From positions 1 through 43,860 of IMG/VR virus record IMGVR_UViG_3300030397_000543: a stretch of 43,860 nt of DNA; one strand, 5' to 3'. The notes under the pieces are model-generated. The model had not been told where the DNA came from, searched no databases, and worked only from the letters and a program-made list of their open reading frames with translations. Every line of letters begins with the position of its first letter. The stretch's first letter is position 1. A program made the position numbers and the translations under genes. The stretch comes from a virus (lineage: Duplodnaviria > Caudoviricetes). Below are positions 5,997-37,985 of this stretch, in pieces.

Positions 5997-7211
5997 GTGA
6001 GCGAAGAAAAAACGCCCGAAGAATTGTTGAACGGAACACAAGATGTTACCCCTGTAACACCAACATCCGATATGATATTTGGTATCGAAACCATAGAAGA
6101 CATTTTCGATATTCTTGCCCAATATCCCGAATTTGACGAATGGGAGCAATTCGGGAATGTTACGGTTAAATCGGAAGGCAATTACCTTTTGTTTAACTAC
6201 AATGCCCAAGCGACTTATCAAGGGGATTGGAACGCCTTCGAGCGCATGAGTCGCGGCTTGATTATCGACAAATACAATTTAGAAATTCGGGCGCGTCCGT
6301 TTGATAAGTTTTTTAATTGGGGTGAACACGGCTGGACCAGTGATGCCAGAGTCGATTACGCAATGCAGAAAATGGACGGTAGTTTAGGCGTATGCTGGTA
6401 CGACCCTGAAAAAGAAACGTGGCGCATTACAACACGCGGCAGCTTCGATAGCGAACAAGCAAAGTGGGCAACGGTCTATTTGCATCGTCAATATGGCATG
6501 TTCATAGATGACAATTTTTCACTTGACCACACATTTTTATTTGAAATAATCTACCCTCAAAATCGTGTGGTGGTTAATTACGGTGGTTTTCAGGGCTTAG
6601 TTCTCATTGGCGCACGCATCAATAACACGGGCGACTATTACGATGATGCAATGCTTGAAGCCTTTGCTGGAACGATACTTTGTCCTACGCCGCGCATCTT
6701 AGATTTTTTGAGCATCGACAATATCTTAGATGCTTTAAAGCATATTCAAGGTGTTAAAACCGAAGGATTCGTAACAGTACATGGTGATGGTACGCGCTGG
6801 AAATTCAAGGGCGAAGATTATTTGCGGATTCATAAGGTCGTTTCAACATTTTCCCTAAAGAATGTCGTCAAAGCGTTAGGGGAAGGGACGTTTCGTCAGT
6901 GGCTAACGGGTATCCCCGACGAATTTCTAGGCGAAATTAAAGCGATGGCAAAAGCAATTACCGCAAGAGTAGACGGCATTGAAGCCGATGTTGACCGCGC
7001 TATTGCAATGTTGACTGTACAATTAGACTATCTTCACGCAGAAGCGAAAGATAGGCGTAAAATTTTCGCGCAAAATGTCAAAGCGTATTATCCCGAATTA
7101 GCACCATACCTATTCCGCAAGTTAGACGGTAAACTAGACCGTGAATTCATCTTAAAAAAGCACGATTTTAGCGACTTGGAGAACAAAGACGATGCCAAGA
7201 GCGAGTCTTGA
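5997..7211 (+). CDS. RNA ligase, T4 Rnl1 (RnlA) family
   Basis: SRGLI...ARPFDKFFN; motif I KMDGS; TRGSF; FLFEII; EGFV; KFK. Confidence 0.92.
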   Translation: MSEEKTPEELLNGTQDVTPVTPTSDMIFGIETIEDIFDILAQYPEFDEWEQFGNVTVKSEGNYLLFNYNAQATYQGDWNAFERMSRGLIIDKYNLEIRARPFDKFFNWGEHGWTSDARVDYAMQKMDGSLGVCWYDPEKETWRITTRGSFDSEQAKWATVYLHRQYGMFIDDNFSLDHTFLFEIIYPQNRVVVNYGGFQGLVLIGARINNTGDYYDDAMLEAFAGTILCPTPRILDFLSIDNILDALKHIQGVKTEGFVTVHGDGTRWKFKGEDYLRIHKVVSTFSLKNVVKALGEGTFRQWLTGIPDEFLGEIKAMAKAITARVDGIEADVDRAIAMLTVQLDYLHAEAKDRRKIFAQNVKAYYPELAPYLFRKLDGKLDREFILKKHDFSDLENKDDAKSES

Positions 7212-9347: not shown

Positions 9348-9715
9348 TTTTTCAACATACCTTAGACAAGGTTCTCTCAGGACAAAAAACCCAAACCTCG
9401 CGTCTATGGCAAGACCATTGGGGCGGAGTCTTGGAAGCCAATAATAGCGTGACCGTTTTTAATGGCAATACAGGGCGTAGGCTTTACTATGCTGGGCAAA
9501 TACGGTCTGTTCAGGCAGGGCGCGGCGTAAAAGGGGTTGCCGAAATTGAGATATTGCGTGTGCGAAAATTGCAAGTGCTGAACTTTGAGCAGCGCGATAT
9601 TGAATTGGAAGGCTTCAATAATCGCCATGAATTTCTAGGCTTATGGCGTGAAATGCACCCTCACTTTATGGCGGTTGTTTTGAACTTTCGTTTAATAACC
9701 CTTTACAAAAAATAA
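9344..9715 (+). CDS. ASCH/PUA-like domain protein
   Basis: MIF...KVLSGQKTQTSR...DIELEGF...EFLGLW...VLNFRL. Confidence 0.8.
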   Translation: MIFQHTLDKVLSGQKTQTSRLWQDHWGGVLEANNSVTVFNGNTGRRLYYAGQIRSVQAGRGVKGVAEIEILRVRKLQVLNFEQRDIELEGFNNRHEFLGLWREMHPHFMAVVLNFRLITLYKK

Positions 9716-9730
9716 AAAGTAAAGTATCCT
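9702..9730 (+). promoter_or_regulatory. Conserved phage promoter copy
   Basis: CCC-TTTACA-17 bp-TATCCT, followed by an AATTCTAAGGAT RBS. Confidence 0.7.
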
Positions 9731-9762
9731 TCTGGTATTGTTAAATTCTAAGGATTAACCCG

Positions 9763-9966
9763 ATGACCGCACAAGAATATGTTCATCTTCATCAGTATTT
9801 ACAAAATGTTATTCGCCAACATTATCGGCTAAATTTTCCGCTTATGGCGCGGTGTGATAATTGCAACGCCATAGTGCCAAAAGGGGAATTGCGAACACGC
9901 TTCATGATTACTCGTTCAGCAAGCACTTGTGCGGCTTGTGACCGCGAATTAGAAAATTACGATTAA
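9763..9966 (+). CDS. Small zinc-finger protein
   Basis: CDNC...CAAC; TAAGGA RBS. Confidence 0.65.
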   Translation: MTAQEYVHLHQYLQNVIRQHYRLNFPLMARCDNCNAIVPKGELRTRFMITRSASTCAACDRELENYD

Positions 9967-17094: not shown

Positions 17095-17096
17095 CA

Positions 17097-17591
17097 CTAG
17101 GGCTTGTCCGATTCTTGCTCATCTTCTTCGGGCAATTCGGCAACGAGTCGGGTTAATTCGTCTGTCGTGACCTTATACCCTTGTTTGGTTAGCAGGTTTT
17201 TTAGCACGCGCACTTCTTTTTGAAGCCGTTTTATTTTGCGTGTTTTTTCGTTATTTTGTTCCGTTAGGAAACTAATTTTCTCTGCCATTTTATCCACTTT
17301 TTCAGCAATTGCGCTTTCGGCTTTTTCGCGCTTTTGCTGCTCATCTTCTTGGTTTTTTTCGATTTTATCCAGACGGTCTAATAAGCGTTCGGATACTTGC
17401 GCCGTTGCCAAGACAGCCTCAACCGATTGGCGAATATCGTCATTGCCAAGACCGTTCGTTTCTGTATGGCGTGCGCGGCGATTCCGCTTGGCACGATTGA
17501 TAATCGGTTTGTCATCATCTCTAGGGCGGATTGTGAGAAAAAACCACCCAATTGACACCCCGATAAGAGTTGCTATGGCTTCGAGTGTCAT
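17097..17591 (-). CDS. Membrane-anchored coiled-coil protein, lysis-cassette-like
   Basis: N-terminal TM segment and long heptad region. Confidence 0.65.
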   Translation of the reverse strand: MTLEAIATLIGVSIGWFFLTIRPRDDDKPIINRAKRNRRARHTETNGLGNDDIRQSVEAVLATAQVSERLLDRLDKIEKNQEDEQQKREKAESAIAEKVDKMAEKISFLTEQNNEKTRKIKRLQKEVRVLKNLLTKQGYKVTTDELTRLVAELPEEDEQESDKP

Positions 17592-28711: not shown

Positions 28712-28903
28712 TTAGGCGTTTTGCTTAACCCATTCGATAGCTTCTTCGTAGGTATCGAGAAATTCGGACTTATCAGTACCTTTTATCCAAGCATGATAAT
28801 CGTTCTTTAAACGACCATCTGTGCCGCGTGAACCGCCAGCAAATGGAGCGATAATAGCGCGAACTTTTTTGCCTGATTTTTTGGTAACGGTGATAATTTT
28901 CAT
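28712..28903 (-). CDS. Small hypothetical accessory protein
   Basis: Starts exactly at the end of the 70-bp promoter/leader repeat. Confidence 0.7.
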   Translation of the reverse strand: MKIITVTKKSGKKVRAIIAPFAGGSRGTDGRLKNDYHAWIKGTDKSEFLDTYEEAIEWVKQNA

Positions 28904-28970
28904 GTGGTCGTATTCTTAGAATTTATCGAACTTAACTTAATGATATAACACTTTTTAATTTTTGTAAAGG
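28901..28970 (-). promoter_or_regulatory. 70-bp promoter-leader-RBS-ATG cassette, copy A
   Basis: TTTACA-17 bp-TATCAT; 64/70 identical to 33858-33927. Confidence 0.85.
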
Positions 28971-29000
28971 TGTTAAATAGAAAAAAGTCGTAAAGGAATC

Positions 29001-29485: not shown

Positions 29486-30196
29486 TTAATCGTCACCAAA
29501 GACGATAATGATTTTACGTTTATTATCTCTAAAAACAACTCGCCAATTAGCAAGTTTCTTCACCGATAAATTCCAAAGGTGTGCCTCTAACATATTGCAA
29601 TGGTGACACAACCACATTAGATTTTCGATTTTTCCGTTATCCGTATTGTGGTCAATGTGATGCACTTGGACATTTTTATTATTGCCGCACCAAGTACATA
29701 TTATCTCTGGACTTTCATTAGTCAGTATATTCTTATGAAAATTACGAGATTTACCACCTCTATAAGCATGATTTTTACTTCCAGACACAAAAAATGAATG
29801 TCGCTCACTATGTGGTTGTTGTAAATCAAGTTCCCTTATCCAACGTGTGATAATTGCTCGACTAACACCATAAAATAAGGCTATTTCATCTTGTGTCATC
29901 CCCTTACCTTCTGGCGGTAACAAATACATTTCGCTTAACTCGTTTTTTGACGGCGCATAAAACTTACGTTTACCTGTATTATGATATGAAACTCGTTCAT
30001 ATCTATCTTGCTCAGGTATCCCTAGTTTTTTTCGCCATCGTTTTACGGTTGCACGATGTACACCATAATAGTTAGCGATTTCTTTTAGCGTCATGCCCTT
30101 ACCTTCTGGTGGCAATAGGTAACGCGATTCAAAATCTTCTTTGGTTGGTAAAGTGCCACGTTTTCGTTTCATAGGTACACTGCAATAAATTAACAA
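29486..30196 (-). CDS. HNH homing endonuclease with tandem HTH domains
   Basis: CTWCG...VHHIDHN...NLMWLCHHCN; duplicated YLLPPEGKGMT HTH unit; AT-rich; own TGATATAAT promoter at 30204-30212. Confidence 0.85.
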   Translation of the reverse strand: MLIYCSVPMKRKRGTLPTKEDFESRYLLPPEGKGMTLKEIANYYGVHRATVKRWRKKLGIPEQDRYERVSYHNTGKRKFYAPSKNELSEMYLLPPEGKGMTQDEIALFYGVSRAIITRWIRELDLQQPHSERHSFFVSGSKNHAYRGGKSRNFHKNILTNESPEIICTWCGNNKNVQVHHIDHNTDNGKIENLMWLCHHCNMLEAHLWNLSVKKLANWRVVFRDNKRKIIIVFGDD

Positions 30197-32948: not shown

Positions 32949-33860
32949 TTACCTACTTTCCCACGCTTCTGCAATTGTTAGTGCAGTATTCATCAATGTT
33001 ACGATTTTACGAGTCACACTGATGCTATTATTGGTGCTTGCTTGGCTGATTTCAGCCGTAAATTCGCCTTCGCTTTCTTTGAGTTCAATACGAATTTCAC
33101 GACGACGAAAACTGTTTTCTACTGGAATTTCGAGTTCAAGTGACCACGTATTATCACGGGCAAAAGAATATTGACGGTAACTAATTTTTACGTTGTTAGC
33201 TCGTTTTTTAGCGGTAATTTGTTTGCTCAAGCTAAGGTTACGTAATTCAATAGGCGCACCATTTTTATCAAGCATCAGTAATTCTGTTTCGTCAACATCA
33301 ACTAAATTCAGACCAGAAGTTAAGGCATACAATTGACCGTCACGACTAATTTCGTAAGCCTCAAAAATCCAACGATACATAATCAAGTCTGCAACTGTGC
33401 AAGTAAATTCTTCGCCAAGTGCGTCAAATGTTTCTTCGATTTCCTGTAAATAAAGTTTTAGGGCTGCTTGATATTGTGTGCGACTACCAAAATCTTCCTC
33501 GATTGGGCGGCTTTTACGTTCTGCTATGGTAACGGTTTCTTCGACATTCGCCCAAAATCTATCGCGCAGTGCTTTTTCACGGTTAATTTTTGCTTGGCGT
33601 TCGGCTTGTTTGGCTGCTTGATATTCTTCTTGACGCTGTTCGCGGAGCGCGTCAAATTCACGAACCTTTAAAATCACTACATTGTCAAATGTAGAATTAA
33701 GGTCAGCTTTGGCATCCGTAGCTTTAGGGAAGCTACTATCGCTACCGTGACCATCTGTAGAATTAGGCTTCATAATCGCCCAAATGTATCCTGCTGGTTT
33801 TTTGCTGATGCAAGCAACGAGTTGGTTAGTGTATTGGTCAGAGTAAGTTACGTTAATCAT
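32949..33860 (-). CDS. Hypothetical accessory protein
   Basis: 303-aa ORF starting at the end of promoter cassette copy B. Confidence 0.75.
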   Translation of the reverse strand: MINVTYSDQYTNQLVACISKKPAGYIWAIMKPNSTDGHGSDSSFPKATDAKADLNSTFDNVVILKVREFDALREQRQEEYQAAKQAERQAKINREKALRDRFWANVEETVTIAERKSRPIEEDFGSRTQYQAALKLYLQEIEETFDALGEEFTCTVADLIMYRWIFEAYEISRDGQLYALTSGLNLVDVDETELLMLDKNGAPIELRNLSLSKQITAKKRANNVKISYRQYSFARDNTWSLELEIPVENSFRRREIRIELKESEGEFTAEISQASTNNSISVTRKIVTLMNTALTIAEAWESR

Positions 33861-33927
33861 GTGGTCGTATCCTTAGAATTTATTGAACTTAATAGAATGA
33901 TATAACATTTTTTAATTTTTGTAAAGG
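33858..33927 (-). promoter_or_regulatory. 70-bp promoter-leader-RBS-ATG cassette, copy B
   Basis: TTTACA-17 bp-TATCAT and TAAGGA RBS; near-identical to 28901-28970. Confidence 0.85.
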
Positions 33928-33937
33928 GGTCAATAGT

Positions 33938-33977
33938 AAAAAGAAAATAAAAACCGCCCTTTTCATCAAGCGGTTTC
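33938..33977 (-). terminator. Terminator of the tRNA array
   Basis: AAACCGC...GCGGTTT stem followed by a long T-rich tail. Confidence 0.55.
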
Positions 33978-34017
33978 GTGAGTGGGGATAGGTTCTGCGA
34001 TAAGGGGTATCGCATTG

Positions 34018-34091
34018 TGCGCCTGAGAGGACTTGAACCTCCAACCAACTGTTCCTAAGACAGCCGCATCTACCAATTGTGCTACAGGCGC
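34018..34091 (-). tRNA. tRNA-Leu(TAG), short variable loop
   Basis: GCGCCTG/CAGGCGC-A; loop CT-TAG-GA; GGAGG-TTCAAGT-CCTCT. Confidence 0.85.
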
Positions 34092-34095
34092 TTCA

Positions 34096-34176
34096 TGGGT
34101 GTTGAGAGATTCGAACTCCCTACCCTTCGGACGTGGTTTACAGCCACGCGCAACTCGCCATCTTTGCCGAACACCC
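34096..34176 (-). tRNA. tRNA-Tyr(GTA)
   Basis: GGGTGTT/AACACCC-A; CGTGG-CTGTAAA-CCACG; extended variable arm. Confidence 0.9.
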
Positions 34177-34180
34177 GAAG

Positions 34181-34254
34181 CTGGCTAGGTAGGACTTGAA
34201 CCTACAACCAACGCATTAACAGTGCGTCGCTCTCACCAATTGAGCTACTAACCA
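34181..34254 (-). tRNA. tRNA-Asn(GTT)
   Basis: TGGTTAG/CTAGCCA-G; ACGCA-CTGTTAA-TGCGT; canonical D and T arms. Confidence 0.93.
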
Positions 34255-34257
34255 TTG

Positions 34258-34329
34258 TGGGGAATGCCTTAAACGATTCGGCGACCTCCCGCAGTTCATA
34301 CGGACGCTCTCCCTCTGAGCTAATTCCCC
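34258..34329 (-). tRNA. Atypical or pseudo tRNA, anticodon GAA (Phe), aberrant T-arm
   Basis: Perfect GGGGAAT/ATTCCCC-A acceptor and GCTC/GAGC D-stem; T-arm GCC-GAATCGTTTAA-GGC lacks TTCRA. Confidence 0.6.
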
Positions 34330-34614
34330 GTGAACAAAGCGAATGACTTGCCAAGTTATTCCTTCGTTCGGACTGTTTGCCACTGGCGCAGTCATTCCAG
34401 ATAATCGAATAGCCCGACTATCGGCAATTAGTATTTCGATACACCCTAATTCGGTGCTAGTCACTGGCGCAAGGTGTGACAACCTTCCCAATTTGACGCA
34501 TTGGGATACGGGTGTTTGGGATTGTGGCGCTGATGACACCATTCACCAGCATAGGTTAGGACAGTGAACCTTTCACAGTTCTTGGTGCATCGGACAAGCC
34601 CTAGTAGCCCGATG
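34330..34614 (-). ncRNA. Candidate structured ncRNA (about 285 nt) within the tRNA array
   Basis: Multiple stems: CATCGGGC/GTCCGATG, GCTGGTGA/TCATCAGC, CACCC/GGGTG enclosing TCCCAAT/ATTGGGA and GTCAC/GTGAC, GAATGACT/AGTCATTC. Confidence 0.6.
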
Positions 34615-34690
34615 TGGGACTGGCAGGACTCGAACCTGCAACCCCTTCATTTTGAGTGAAGCGCAAAACTGCCAATTGTGCTACAGTCCC
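34615..34690 (-). tRNA. tRNA-Leu(CAA), short variable loop
   Basis: GGGACTG/CAGTCCC-A; CTTCA-CTCAAAA-TGAAG; GCAGG-TTCGAGT-CCTGC. Confidence 0.85.
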
Positions 34691-34770
34691 GTGCGAGAGA
34701 ATACAGGCTATTATGTGCTATCTCTCGATTCACCTAACGAGTTCACTTGCAGCCCGTTCGTCAGGTCTTG

Positions 34771-34843
34771 ATGGGGAAACAAGGCTCGAACTTGTAACCT
34801 TTGCATCCAAAATGCAACGCTCTCCCGATTGAGCTATTCCCCA
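34771..34843 (-). tRNA. tRNA-Gln(TTG)
   Basis: TGGGGAA/TTCCCCA (U1-A72); TTGCA-TTTTGGA-TGCAA. Confidence 0.88.
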
Positions 34844-34846
34844 ATA

Positions 34847-34920
34847 TAGCAGGGGCGGAAATTGAATCCGCGCTCCTCGAATTGTTAATTCGTCAGAGAT
34901 AACCACCTCTAATCCCTGCA
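34847..34920 (-). tRNA. Atypical or pseudo tRNA, initiator-like body, apparent anticodon AAC
   Basis: 1:72 mismatch; GCAGGG/CCCTGC; GCGGA-TTCAATT-TCCGC T-arm; CGAA-TTAACAA-TTCG anticodon arm. Confidence 0.55.
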
Positions 34921-34922
34921 AG

Positions 34923-34998
34923 TGGGCGTGGTCGGATTTGAACCAACACGTCAATCGTCCCTTAGACGATTAGCTCTGCCATTGAGACTTACACACCC
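34923..34998 (-). tRNA. tRNA-Leu(AAG), A34 anticodon, short variable loop
   Basis: GGGTGTG/CACGCCC-A; ATCGT-CTAAGGG-ACGAT; GTTGG-TTCAAAT-CCGAC; irregular D-stem. Confidence 0.7.
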
Positions 34999-35055
34999 GA
35001 ATGAGGGCGTTTAACGTCTGTCCCTCAAAGACATTCTTTAATTTAATAAAGATTG

Positions 35056-35138
35056 CGGAAAATGGAGGAATCGAACCCCTACGCTCTCACGCACGCCAGT
35101 TTTCAAGGCTGGTTGCCGACCATTCAGCCGCACTTTCC
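35056..35138 (-). tRNA. tRNA-Ser(TGA)
   Basis: GGAAAGT/ATTTTCC-G; loop CT-TGA-AA; long variable arm. Confidence 0.88.
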
Positions 35139-35141
35139 GTA

Positions 35142-35239
35142 TGGTGGCGCTATATTAATCGTTTCTTCGCATCGTGCAAACCGATTTGCGCGCAACCGAT
35201 TTATCGTTTTACGAAGTCTGCATTAATCGGCATACCACC
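35142..35239 (-). ncRNA. Candidate structured RNA (about 98 nt) between tRNA-Trp and tRNA-Ser
   Basis: End-to-end pairing GGTGGT/GCCACC-A, ATTAAT/ATTAAT and CTTCGTA/TGCGAAG, with two apical hairpins. Confidence 0.5.
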
Positions 35240-35241
35240 GT

Positions 35242-35314
35242 CAGGCGTTAAGGGAATTGAACCCCTTGCTACAGTTTTGGAGACTGTCATGTTACACCAT
35301 TACACCAAACGCCT
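35242..35314 (-). tRNA. tRNA-Trp(CCA)
   Basis: AGGCGTT/AACGCCT-G; ACAGT-CTCCAAA-ACTGT; AGGGG-TTCAATT-CCCTT. Confidence 0.9.
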
Positions 35315-35565: not shown

Positions 35566-37985
35566 TATTCACCTTCTGGCTCAGGTATGAATGGAATTTC
35601 CACACAACGACAATTGATAATTTCTTTGAGGGCTGCGCTCTTGTCTCCTGGATGAAGCATTTCAACACCACCAACAACAAATTTATCGTCAATCGGGATA
35701 GCGCCTATTTCACCGCCCTCAGTATAGCGCCGTTCGGCTGCCAAGTGACTTTCGCGTGTACGGTCATCTTGGGTTGCAAGCCACTCTTTTTTTGTTGCCC
35801 CAATCCGACGATAGAGATTGTGATTAGCGGCGCTTGCTGCGCCATGTGTTTCAGTTCGGGCTATCATTTCCAGACGGTATGGCGGCATTCGTTCCTGCAT
35901 AAATGCCCAATCATCAGGTGATTGTCCGCCGTTCATGTATTGGTCGAACAACAAACCCAACTTCTTGCCGATTTCATCTGTTCCCATTTCCGCCTCAAGC
36001 CCATCACGAATGACCGCGTGAATACCCTCAAAGGTCGTTTGGTTAATATCCCTAGCGAATTTGAGAGAGTAATTTGCAAACCATGCTTCGGTTTCGATGC
36101 TGGACCGCATGACAAAAATGGTATCAAAATCGGTAATGGTATCTTCTAAATCGAGGGCTTGTCCCATGAGTGTACGGGTATCGGAAGCGATTGTTAGCAC
36201 CAATGGCGACATTTGCTCTTGTACCTCGAATAATCCGCCCGAAAATAGGTACATACGCGCCCATTGCTCATAGGTCATCCAATCAAAGGTTTTTACCTTT
36301 TTGATTGACTCCCGTTTGAGAACATCAAAGCGTTTTTGCAAAGTCTTTTTCTGGTTACGGAATATCCGCTTCGCGCCTGTTTCAAATGCAGGTTCATGTT
36401 TGGCGATTAGTGCAATCAGGTTATCGCGCAATTTCTCTTTTGCAGCGCGGCTTAATTTGCTTTTTATAATCGGCTTGCTATAGTGGACAACATCCTCACC
36501 GTCATCTATACCATCGTGAATACCGCCGTAAGTCGCACCGTCTAACGGGGCAACATGAACAGGTGTACCATCATCAAGGAATTTTTGCGGTTCATCGTCA
36601 TCCTCATTGTCCGATTCTTCTGCTTCATCTTCCTGCCCTTCTGGTAATTGTGGCGGTTCATCTTCACCAAAGGGCGCTTCGACTGGTTGCGGCGGTTGCA
36701 TTCCGATTGATACAGGGACTAAGCCGACTGGCATAAAGGAAATATCGCCACCTTCAATCTCGCCAATATCTAGCCCTGCAATTCGCGCTGCAACGTGTGG
36801 CGGAACCATGCTGTGTACCAATTCCTTGTAGGTTGCGACTTGGGTTGTCGTGTCATCAGCAAAGGCTTTAATACCACTTGTATCAAAGCGCAAAAATAGC
36901 TTGTCATCTAATGTAACCTTATGCCGCAATTCTTCTTCAAAGAGCAGCAACTCGGTATTCATTGTGTTTTGCCAAAAGTCTTCTTTTGCTTCACTAATGT
37001 TATTGTAGGTACTATTCGCTTCATCCAAGCCGATTAATCGTCCTGGTACACCAAAAACGGTTGTTACGCGGCGCACATTCCGCAAGTCGATTACATCCAA
37101 GCCCATATCTTTGAAACTTGGGACCATGTGCGTAAAGTTACCGCCACCATCAATAACAAGCGGCTTACCCCAATTCCCAGCACCGCCGTAAACTTCTTCG
37201 ATTTGGGAGCGTAGGGCTTCAATGTCTTCTTGGTTACTTTCGTAAGGGAGTTGAATCACGCCTCCTGGCATAATCCCTTGATTCTTGAAGTAACTCGCCA
37301 AGAACTTGGTCATATGGTTGTCAGTATCCGCCGTTCGCGCTCCTGCCGACAAAGGCGATAGACCGTAACCTTGCCCTTCTAATGGGTCGTAGGGATTAGG
37401 GAATTTTATGTGCAACATATTGGAAGGGTGAATCGGTATCATCTTCTGTTCGGACATTCCATCAGGATAATAGGCATATCCGATTACCGCATTCGATTTC
37501 TTACGCCCGTTCTCCATTTCGGGAACAATCGCCACGCGGTCAGGACGTAAGGGGTACATCCCTAATTCCAGACCGTCATTGATACCTGTCACATAAATGA
37601 AGCAATTGCCGTGTAGGTTGAGATAGAGAACACAGTATTGCATAAATTCGACACGCGATTGATAGGCGTTCGGGCGCATGGCGAGTTGATACAAGGGGTG
37701 CGATTCGTTTTCGGACAATTCCGCATTGTCGGGCGTTCCCTCGTATGCGCGTAAGGGTGCTTGAGCAATCGCGTCTAGCTTGTACTTGATTGCCCCATAA
37801 ATCACCGCATTTTGGCTATAGCCCTCTTTGGCATAGCTCTCATAATCAATCATATGCCACTGGTACGCTCCTGGTCGCACCATATGCCACACAATCGGCA
37901 ATGGGAAATTCTTCTCTTGGGGTTTGCTCATAAATGCCCGAATACCGTTGCGAAAACGGTCAACCAGCTTGACTTGTGCAACCAT
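35565..37985 (-). CDS. Portal protein (HK97 family) fused to a MuF / SPP1 gp7-like minor head domain
   Basis: Portal motifs LRPDRV, GLSPLS, FGVPGRLIG; acidic linker; MuF motifs IARTET, KEWLATQDDRTRESH, INCRC; start reassigned to ATG 37985 (GGAAGG RBS). Confidence 0.92.
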   Translation of the reverse strand: MVAQVKLVDRFRNGIRAFMSKPQEKNFPLPIVWHMVRPGAYQWHMIDYESYAKEGYSQNAVIYGAIKYKLDAIAQAPLRAYEGTPDNAELSENESHPLYQLAMRPNAYQSRVEFMQYCVLYLNLHGNCFIYVTGINDGLELGMYPLRPDRVAIVPEMENGRKKSNAVIGYAYYPDGMSEQKMIPIHPSNMLHIKFPNPYDPLEGQGYGLSPLSAGARTADTDNHMTKFLASYFKNQGIMPGGVIQLPYESNQEDIEALRSQIEEVYGGAGNWGKPLVIDGGGNFTHMVPSFKDMGLDVIDLRNVRRVTTVFGVPGRLIGLDEANSTYNNISEAKEDFWQNTMNTELLLFEEELRHKVTLDDKLFLRFDTSGIKAFADDTTTQVATYKELVHSMVPPHVAARIAGLDIGEIEGGDISFMPVGLVPVSIGMQPPQPVEAPFGEDEPPQLPEGQEDEAEESDNEDDDEPQKFLDDGTPVHVAPLDGATYGGIHDGIDDGEDVVHYSKPIIKSKLSRAAKEKLRDNLIALIAKHEPAFETGAKRIFRNQKKTLQKRFDVLKRESIKKVKTFDWMTYEQWARMYLFSGGLFEVQEQMSPLVLTIASDTRTLMGQALDLEDTITDFDTIFVMRSSIETEAWFANYSLKFARDINQTTFEGIHAVIRDGLEAEMGTDEIGKKLGLLFDQYMNGGQSPDDWAFMQERMPPYRLEMIARTETHGAASAANHNLYRRIGATKKEWLATQDDRTRESHLAAERRYTEGGEIGAIPIDDKFVVGGVEMLHPGDKSAALKEIINCRCVEIPFIPEPEGE

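Follow-up and report, generated by a model that had tools for sequence, protein, structure and literature searches.

The window analysed here (43,860 nt) is a 43.9-kb contig of an uncultured aquatic phage whose head genes are of the HK97 type and whose tail genes are of the siphovirus type. Its minus strand carries the terminase, portal, prohead protease, major capsid, tape measure and Dit genes, and its plus strand the genes for DnaB, an Rnl1-type RNA ligase and a glycosyltransferase. Ten tRNA or tRNA-like genes form an array on the minus strand (Table 1), which begins 23 nt past the stop of a small Cys-rich gene, itself situated behind the portal gene, and which is bordered on its other flank by a 303-aa orphan gene for which no relatives were found. 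Within the array, the minus strand showed no promoter-like site, from which we infer that the array is transcribed together with the late head operon.

Three relatives with 49-50% portal identity (L081, L082 and L283) lack a tRNA array at the corresponding place, so that the array is a lineage-specific insert. Where the array sits here, one of them carries a tandem pair of ~140-nt non-coding repeats with hairpins (L081:7600-7870), and another has a short element related to this pair (L082, near 9880-9925). Elsewhere in the window, an 86-nt promoter-like cassette occurs in two copies that are 86% identical, ahead of two orphan genes (33857-33942 and 28900-28985), and part of it recurs, inverted, in the early region (9699-9733). 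Short tandem repeats at 626-691 and 745-780, within a 315-aa gene ahead of DnaB, resemble a replication origin located in an initiator gene.

Table 1. Features of the tRNA array, the candidate RNA and related sites in the window; nucleotide n of the RNA corresponds to window position 34615 - n.
Feature	RNA nt	Window position	Strand	Basis or details
tRNA array, ten tRNA or tRNA-like genes		34017-35314	-	tRNA searches and Rfam
Upstream tRNA-Leu(CAA), short variable arm, CCA not encoded		34614-34690	-	ARAGORN
Candidate non-coding RNA, 285 nt		34330-34614	-	
Downstream degenerate tRNA-like gene, GAA anticodon, irregular T arm		about 34256-34329	-	Rfam, 33.4 bits
Intrinsic-terminator-like hairpin at array end		33950-33977	-	
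5' hairpin, 8-bp stem, 11-nt loop	1-27	34588-34614	-	probability 0.21 globally
17-nt segment, perfect complement of late-strand 17112-17096	10-26	34589-34605	-	sequence match
Target site: last codons and UAG stop of a 164-aa orphan gene (17591-17097)		17096-17112	-	sequence match
Module A	75-174	34441-34540	-	P1 75-79/158-162, P2 138-144/168-174, 10-mer 144-153, CCGAA 161-165
Module B	200-274	34341-34415	-	P1 200-204/241-245, P2 218-225/267-274, P3 225-227/235-237
Module B motifs	10-mer 225-234, CCGAA 244-248		-	HDV-like topology, non-canonical core
Strong hairpin, competitor of module B P1	193-215	34400-34422	-	probability 0.98
Strong terminal hairpin, competitor of module B P2	246-283	34332-34369	-	probability 0.99
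T4 Rnl1-type RNA ligase gene, context for possible tRNA repair		5997-7211	+	protein family search

Several members of the array are atypical. The three tRNAs with Leu anticodons, UAG, CAA and AAG (34017-34091, 34614-34690 and 34922-34998, all on the minus strand), have short variable arms in every case; short-armed CAA tRNAs are widespread in phages, with about 690 stretches estimated. An A occupies the wobble position of two tRNA-like genes, AAC (34847-34919) and AAG (34922-34998), both on the minus strand, which is unusual in bacteria, and the AAC gene is missed by both ARAGORN and the Rfam tRNA model. The GAA tRNA-like gene (34329-34258) is likewise a weak one, recognised at the Rfam score given in Table 1 and missed by ARAGORN.

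An earlier reading of the sequence, referred to here as the first-pass annotation, had described most other spacers of the array as only a few nucleotides long. This holds for five of eight, the other three being 56, 79 and 103 nt long and weakly folded (z about -2.4 to -2.5). The 79-nt spacer (34691-34769, minus strand; z -2.4) contains two hairpins whose loops are complementary by eye and might kiss, and one of these loops may also pair over 9 nt with nt 199-207 of the candidate RNA. At 35141-35239 on the same strand lies a ~100-nt rod-like RNA with an acceptor-like closing stem (z -2.5), which has no Rfam match. Neither of these two elements has a homologue among 120 tRNA loci.

The stretch of principal interest separates tRNA-Leu(CAA) from the GAA tRNA-like gene. 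Its position on the minus strand had been given correctly, the true spacer being 284 nt, as 34614 is the final base of tRNA-Leu(CAA) according to ARAGORN. Nor does the stretch hold a credible ORF, as had also been stated; even the longest open frame, of 108 codons (34542-34216), extends across two tRNA genes and matches no PHROG family. Assembly depth is 130-320 across the stretch, with no variant letters listed, in three DNA runs from one aquatic study, which may be the one that the contig itself comes from, and no RNA run is among the listed runs that contain it.

The first-pass annotation had proposed a comparison with the Rfam covariance models of GOLLD, ROOL, Y RNA, RNase P and group I introns, none of which gave a match in the stretch; indeed, no Rfam match of any kind lies inside 34330-34614 at E<=10. 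RNase P RNA, group I intron, tmRNA, SRP, T-box and hammerhead identities were rejected on this ground and because their core motifs are absent, and Y RNA for lack of an Rfam match. Readings as a glmS or pistol ribozyme, a cobalamin riboswitch or a CRISPR array had arisen from likeness only and were dropped, with no Rfam match or core motif found for them.

Folding of the stretch beats that of shuffled sequences only modestly. The MFE has a z-score of -2.14, with 9 of 200 shuffles as good, a second run gave -2.5, and a 150-nt span limit gave -2.75; the last 100 nt of the RNA reach -3.6. Under the same span limit, the opposite strand outperforms the sense strand, with a z of -4.07, and 4 of 47 other genome windows score below the RNA. 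The six or more stems described in the first-pass annotation can be drawn, but with only this modest gain over shuffles. A modest z is nevertheless uninformative and no objection to a functional RNA, since a conserved array family from freshwater phages, described below, shows no folding advantage over shuffles (z between -2.6 and +1.4 for 10 members) despite its strong covariation.

Two global folds of almost equal energy, -90.3 and -90.2 kcal/mol, are predicted. The junction closed by CACCC/GGGUG and the 3' domain closed by the GAAUGACU/AGUCAUUC stem, both proposed earlier, have a mean pair probability of 0.00 in the nested ensemble, and enforcing them costs 4.1 and 5.6 kcal/mol, respectively, relative to the MFE; one of the proposed stems does, in fact, fit a pseudoknotted module. 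The robust helices are instead those at 193-201/207-215 (0.98), 246-253/276-283 (0.99) and 23-31/170-178 (0.73). The 5' hairpin is present in the centroid under a 100-nt span limit, its loop is able to pair with nt 53-58 as a pseudoknot, and it is followed by a GCACCA motif.

As reported in the first-pass annotation, the 10-mer UGCGCCAGUG occurs twice, at nt 144 and nt 225, and GCGCCA a third time, at nt 85. A repeat of at least 10 nt arises in 48 of 2000 dinucleotide shuffles, and one accompanied by a separate 8-nt repeat in 11 of 2000. The shorter motif GCRCC is present five times, two of these being the 10-mer copies themselves, and four of the five end in CCA; none of 2000 shuffles reaches five. 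The kissing-loop role that had been suggested for the 10-mer is not supported, as there is no self-complementary 6-mer anywhere in the RNA.

Both copies of the 10-mer are embedded in a similar arrangement of helices. In each, the 5' strand of a helix abuts the motif and closes downstream of it, with 7 bp including one GU pair at one copy and 8 bp without GU at the other, and CCGAA follows the 10-mer at a distance of 7 or 9 nt. Furthermore, the strand ending in the CC of CCGAA can pair with an upstream strand (75-79 or 200-204), crossing the first helix. Among 20000 shuffles that kept the 10-mers fixed, 2 contained both abutting helices together with the shared 5-mer, while 119 of 5000 had a second helix, crossing the first and at least 5 bp long, at both copies, both counts being post hoc, as all of the module statistics were framed after the sequence had been seen. 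The module pattern occurs twice in the window and not at all in 100 shuffles. The two copies align with 26 identical columns over the 41 nt of module A, indicating that a longer unit, with the 10-mer at its core, is duplicated. The copies have different helix sequences, as compensatory change would give, and this is the sole covariation-like signal available.

The modular fold, which has a well-predicted hairpin (94-129) in the linker of module A, is not favoured by nearest-neighbour energies. Its nested part amounts to -67.4 kcal/mol, compared with -90.3 kcal/mol for the MFE, and its three crossing helices contribute about -10 kcal/mol each before loop penalties; it would therefore need tertiary contacts, Mg2+ or a protein.

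Within module B, nt 200-274 fit a nested double-pseudoknot descriptor (P1, P1.1, P2 and P3) with G1, one P1.1 pair, a C-A-A junction and a C after a weak P4. This fit, together with the occurrence of HDV-like (theta) ribozymes beside phage tRNAs (PMC10879173, in part), raises the possibility that module B is a self-cleaving ribozyme that would cut before nt 200 and split the precursor. The descriptor was loosened post hoc, and its loosest form fits 307 of 1500 shuffles; 8 of 1500 fit when G1 and P1.1 are included, 1 of 1500 with a P2 of at least 6 bp, and none of 1500 with all-Watson-Crick P2 and P3. The medium form also fits two further places in the window.

The catalytic core also argues against cleavage. 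An HDV-like core requires a U/G reverse wobble in L3, a conserved C before G, two P1.1 C-G pairs and a J4/2 of CRRA (PMC6326823, in part). In module B, L3 has G at position 1, G at position 5 and U at position 6, such that G and U replace the required U and G, and an inverted L3 pair is described as inactive, with less than 2% activity (PMC3386971, in part). P1.1 consists of only one pair in either register, and J4/2 comprises C265, A266 and A267 followed by a paired G, which at 3 nt is one base short of CRRA. G1 does pair with a pyrimidine at the base of P1 (G200-C245 or G201-C244), but P1 contains an A205-C240 mismatch, whereas that of HDV-like ribozymes is fully paired over about 7 bp; P1 mismatches are uncommon and are linked to loss of activity (PMC3774820, in part).

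The location is also unlike that of tRNA-associated theta ribozymes. Their site lies at most 5 nt from the tRNA end (PMC10879173, in part), whereas the predicted site of module B is 200 nt downstream of it, and the descriptor fits nothing at the tRNA end itself. The 10-mer core is absent from 9 supplement files of the same paper. In addition, module A has neither a P3 nor the catalytic C, and the double pseudoknot of module B has to compete with the two strong hairpins listed in Table 1. As modelled, module B has the topology of the HDV ribozyme but fails in four features of the catalytic core; it is not classed as a ribozyme, and self-cleavage is considered very improbable.

A second feature of the RNA that could carry a function lies at its 5' end. 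Nucleotides 10-26, which comprise the loop and 3' arm of the 5' hairpin, are identical to the plus strand at 17096-17112 and are accordingly antisense to the end of a late-strand gene. No other exact long-range inverted match in the window is as long as this one of 17 nt, and only 5 of 5000 shuffles reach its length. The target gene has a hydrophobic N-terminus, and its only match is to a holin at E 0.34. The site lies just upstream of a TGn-TATAAT element and 52 nt before the next gene, in a cluster that contains membrane-type ORFs; no promoter was detected there by a -35/-10 scan, which requires a -35 box. The predicted duplex (-36.7 kcal/mol) is far more stable than the hairpin (-11.2 kcal/mol), and nt 13-27 have a second antisense site, with 14 of 15 positions matching, within the portal gene (36154-36168).

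These observations would suit a trans-acting antisense RNA whose 5' hairpin loop nucleates on the stop-codon region of 17591-17097 and forms an 18-bp duplex by strand exchange, which we regard as unlikely. The proposed outcome, that the message is cut or that the next gene of the membrane-protein cluster is uncoupled such that lysis timing is tuned, is held to be equally doubtful. Although the complementarity is perfect and falls on the strand that gives antisense, two unrelated 16-nt long-range inverted matches exist elsewhere in the window, showing that such matches arise by chance genome-wide, and this was one among several post hoc tests. Moreover, no other part or hairpin of the RNA has a comparable match, the target is an orphan with no better relative than the holin already mentioned, and the reading accounts for only 26 of 285 nt. 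Lambda OOP RNA is a phage antisense RNA complementary across a stop codon into an intercistronic gap, and in this respect the complementarity seen here is alike; an antisense RNA of the proposed kind would act as OOP does. Unlike OOP, the present RNA is encoded within a tRNA operon, 17.5 kb away from the target, with only 17-18 bp of complementarity.

The two features can also be combined, the RNA then being a natural tRNA-flanked guide, set free by tRNA processing, in which a 5' 17-nt guide is directed at the stop codon and promoter-like site of a late membrane (lysis-type) gene. Its two pseudoknot modules, arranged in tandem and HDV-like in topology but with a novel core, would provide a protein-binding or catalytic scaffold. 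Such a guide RNA is quite improbable; were it real, it would define a novel class of phage RNA, regulatory or catalytic, that couples tRNA maturation to lysis timing. No RNA-guided effector (IscB, TnpB, TIGR-Tas or Cas) was recognised among the ORFs scanned, many of which are orphans, on a contig that may be incomplete. The gene directly behind that of the major capsid protein (29486-30196, minus strand) encodes a double-HTH and HNH endonuclease, which matches the IscB model in its HNH part only, at 24.2 bits against a cut-off of 175.

The homologue search in phage metagenomes advocated in the first-pass annotation returned no relative: the RNA is a singleton in all searches. By blastn, it matched five phage records at E 0.9, all in coding DNA, and no plasmid; each module alone gave only short matches in coding DNA, and the whole array matches other phages through its tRNAs only. 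An exact-word search of viral contigs and genomes was negative. The doubled-motif scan (14 of 64 collection parts) yielded 123 loci, many of them coding repeats and none with an nhmmer match, and a scan of 12 of the 64 parts for short-armed CAA tRNAs gave 120 loci, in which neither the RNA nor its two folded neighbours were matched.

The sequence-only model R2 gave no match on 38 loci and, in 100 record searches, two matches of 12-13 bits that both lie inside ORFs; these searches covered 99 distinct records, the larger ones chosen from about 240 loci. The module pattern was found in none of 50 records and in 4 of 544 loci, all within long open frames. Approaching the locus through its portal gene was no more productive: a single-protein scan gave no loci, an alignment scan gave 159, of which four had one tRNA call and none an array, a clade pattern gave one viral contig without the array and no genome, and the whole records of portal relatives contained a tRNA in none of five cases. 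The closest portal relatives are P0002 (76%), P0003 (57%), P0009, P0010, P0014 and P0019. No published description of the RNA was found in the literature searched. Six short words from it were not found in the portion of the PMC10690425 supplements that was searched, and the RNA may be among the 10,006 candidates of that paper.

Together with the modest z, the better-scoring genome windows and opposite strand, the near-tie between two global folds and the degenerate tRNAs among its neighbours, the singleton status of the RNA would suit an ordinary spacer. Such a spacer, left over from a short duplication within the stretch or from tRNA-like genes that have decayed, would be co-transcribed and degraded, its repeats reflecting duplication rather than selection. 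Yet duplication, if neutral, would not recreate the two flanking helices in unlike sequences, and local alignment shows no significant likeness of the stretch to any of 12 array elements, the best score being reached by 16 of 300 shuffles. In addition, phage genomes seldom keep 284 idle nt within an operon. We consider a neutral duplicated spacer somewhat doubtful, and nearly as likely as the functional reading that we favour below.

As a class, sizeable inserts among phage tRNAs are ordinary, as 56 ORF-poor spacers of 150-500 nt are present in 120 phage tRNA loci. One family of such inserts (alignment A3; L423-L542, for example L430:315-547 on the plus strand) occupies 205-235 nt between tRNAs of large phages. 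Its scan gave 120 loci, with about 140 estimated in IMG/VR, and 117 of the 120 have a same-strand tRNA call in the locus. In an alignment of 59 members with less than 85% identity, 18 of 28 predicted pairs show compensatory changes, and a variable palindrome in 58 of the 59 makes the family, which has no Rfam match, a self-dimer candidate. Further recurring inserts were observed in the course of this survey, namely a 195-nt class between phage tRNAs that is permuted-tmRNA-like by eye (L294, L335, L338, L346 and L347), a 159-nt class, two 162-nt classes and the CyVA-1 RNA (L332 with L362; L316 with L355; L312).

The present RNA is like the A3 family in its size and its place between tRNAs, and one 10-nt and one 9-nt word are common to it and the invariant motifs of the family. 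Unlike A3 members, it has no palindromic loop and no closing helix around the whole RNA, and the two words stand in reversed order; a scan for that order gave 19 loci, none of them alike or beside a tRNA. The A3 HMM scores the RNA at 3.2 bits (E 0.73), and none of the 72 A3 CM matches listed at E<=10 lies inside the stretch. Judged by sequence comparison, the RNA is not an A3 member.

The same comparison bears on whether the RNA could be a GOLLD/ROOL-type oligomer made of RNA alone, or else be related to A3 through permutation. The genomic setting is the same (PMC12286853, in part), and the two words would be a link to A3; the absence of an Rfam match, the A3 model results, the reversed words with their 19 dissimilar loci and the missing palindrome all argue against it, and we hold this identity to be improbable.

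A further possibility is that the stretch gives rise to several small RNAs, in which helices closed by GGUGU and GCRCC, followed by A, mimic acceptor stems that RNase P would cut apart and to which CCA ends would be added. GGUGU does pair with GCGCC at 75-79/145-149 (-90.2 kcal/mol when enforced) and at 170-175/225-230, and the 103-nt neighbour spacer is closed likewise. Forming both closings jointly costs 8 kcal/mol, however, and the stretch contains no D or T arms, no T-loop word and no match to the tRNA model; a division into such pieces is very unlikely.

A non-tRNA RNA released from a tRNA precursor, as envisaged in the first-pass annotation, is the likeliest class for the stretch, in keeping with its internal order beyond that of shuffles and with the commonness of such cargo. 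Taken together, the readings in which the RNA is functional are probable. Among them, we tentatively favour a processed, stable RNA that acts as a multivalent protein-binding decoy. The RNA would be transcribed with the late head operon, and the nucleases that mature the flanking tRNAs, which are those of the host, would free an RNA of about 285 nt with defined ends late in infection. This RNA would fold into two similar pseudoknotted modules that display one motif, and the repeated motif, perhaps with the CCA-ending mimics, may titrate a host RNA-binding protein. The protein partner of the modelled RNA is putative, and the most plausible target of a decoy would be a protein that attacks or handles tRNAs.

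Consistent with a decoy are the course of the array from the portal operon to a single terminator-like hairpin, the duplicated motif, flanked in both copies by matching helices that differ in sequence, and the five GCRCC motifs. The suggestion of a conflict over tRNAs comes from context alone, namely the RNA ligase gene, the atypical tRNAs and published immunity directed against tRNA tails. The CCA tails of tRNAs are targeted by bacterial immunity, in which Cas12a3 cuts the 3' tails (PMC12851939, in part), whereas the CCA motifs of the present RNA are internal. Also against a decoy are the lack of any homologue, and hence of cross-genome covariation, the post hoc nature of the statistics, the strong hairpins that compete with module B, the better folding of the opposite strand and the lineage-specific nature of the array, which relatives with about 50% portal identity do not have.

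It has long been recognised that the tRNA clusters of phages contain stable RNAs to which no role has been assigned, such as T4 RNAC, T4 RNAD, GOLLD and ROOL. The present RNA makes three separable predictions, of a repeated protein-binding module, of an exact antisense target in its own genome and of a near-ribozyme fold, and a positive result on any of them would provide a first concrete mechanism for this class of RNA.

GOLLD (RF02032) and ROOL are non-coding phage RNAs near tRNA islands and without known function (PMC12286853 and PMC12990946, both in part), and the stretch likewise sits near a phage tRNA island. Unlike them, it is a much shorter spacer of 284 nt, as many GOLLD RNAs exceed 800 nt (PMC12286853, in part), and it has no match to an Rfam covariance model, which in the case of GOLLD would be expected for its conserved 3' domain. 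These differences speak against the reduced GOLLD-like RNA that had been considered in the first-pass annotation.

RNAC and RNAD of T4 sit in its tRNA cluster and are released by tRNA processing. They are late RNAs, also called species 1 and 2, whose function is unknown (PMC9697503, in part). The present RNA differs from them in its siphophage host genome, its duplicated motif and its antisense segment, and no sequence match in an annotated phage collection ties it to them. It is of the same kind in being an ORF-free insert between co-oriented tRNA genes, and its accumulation as a discrete RNA is predicted. The RNA would thus be a candidate that belongs to none of the tested families and that, by analogy, resembles the stable non-tRNA cargo of phage tRNA clusters.
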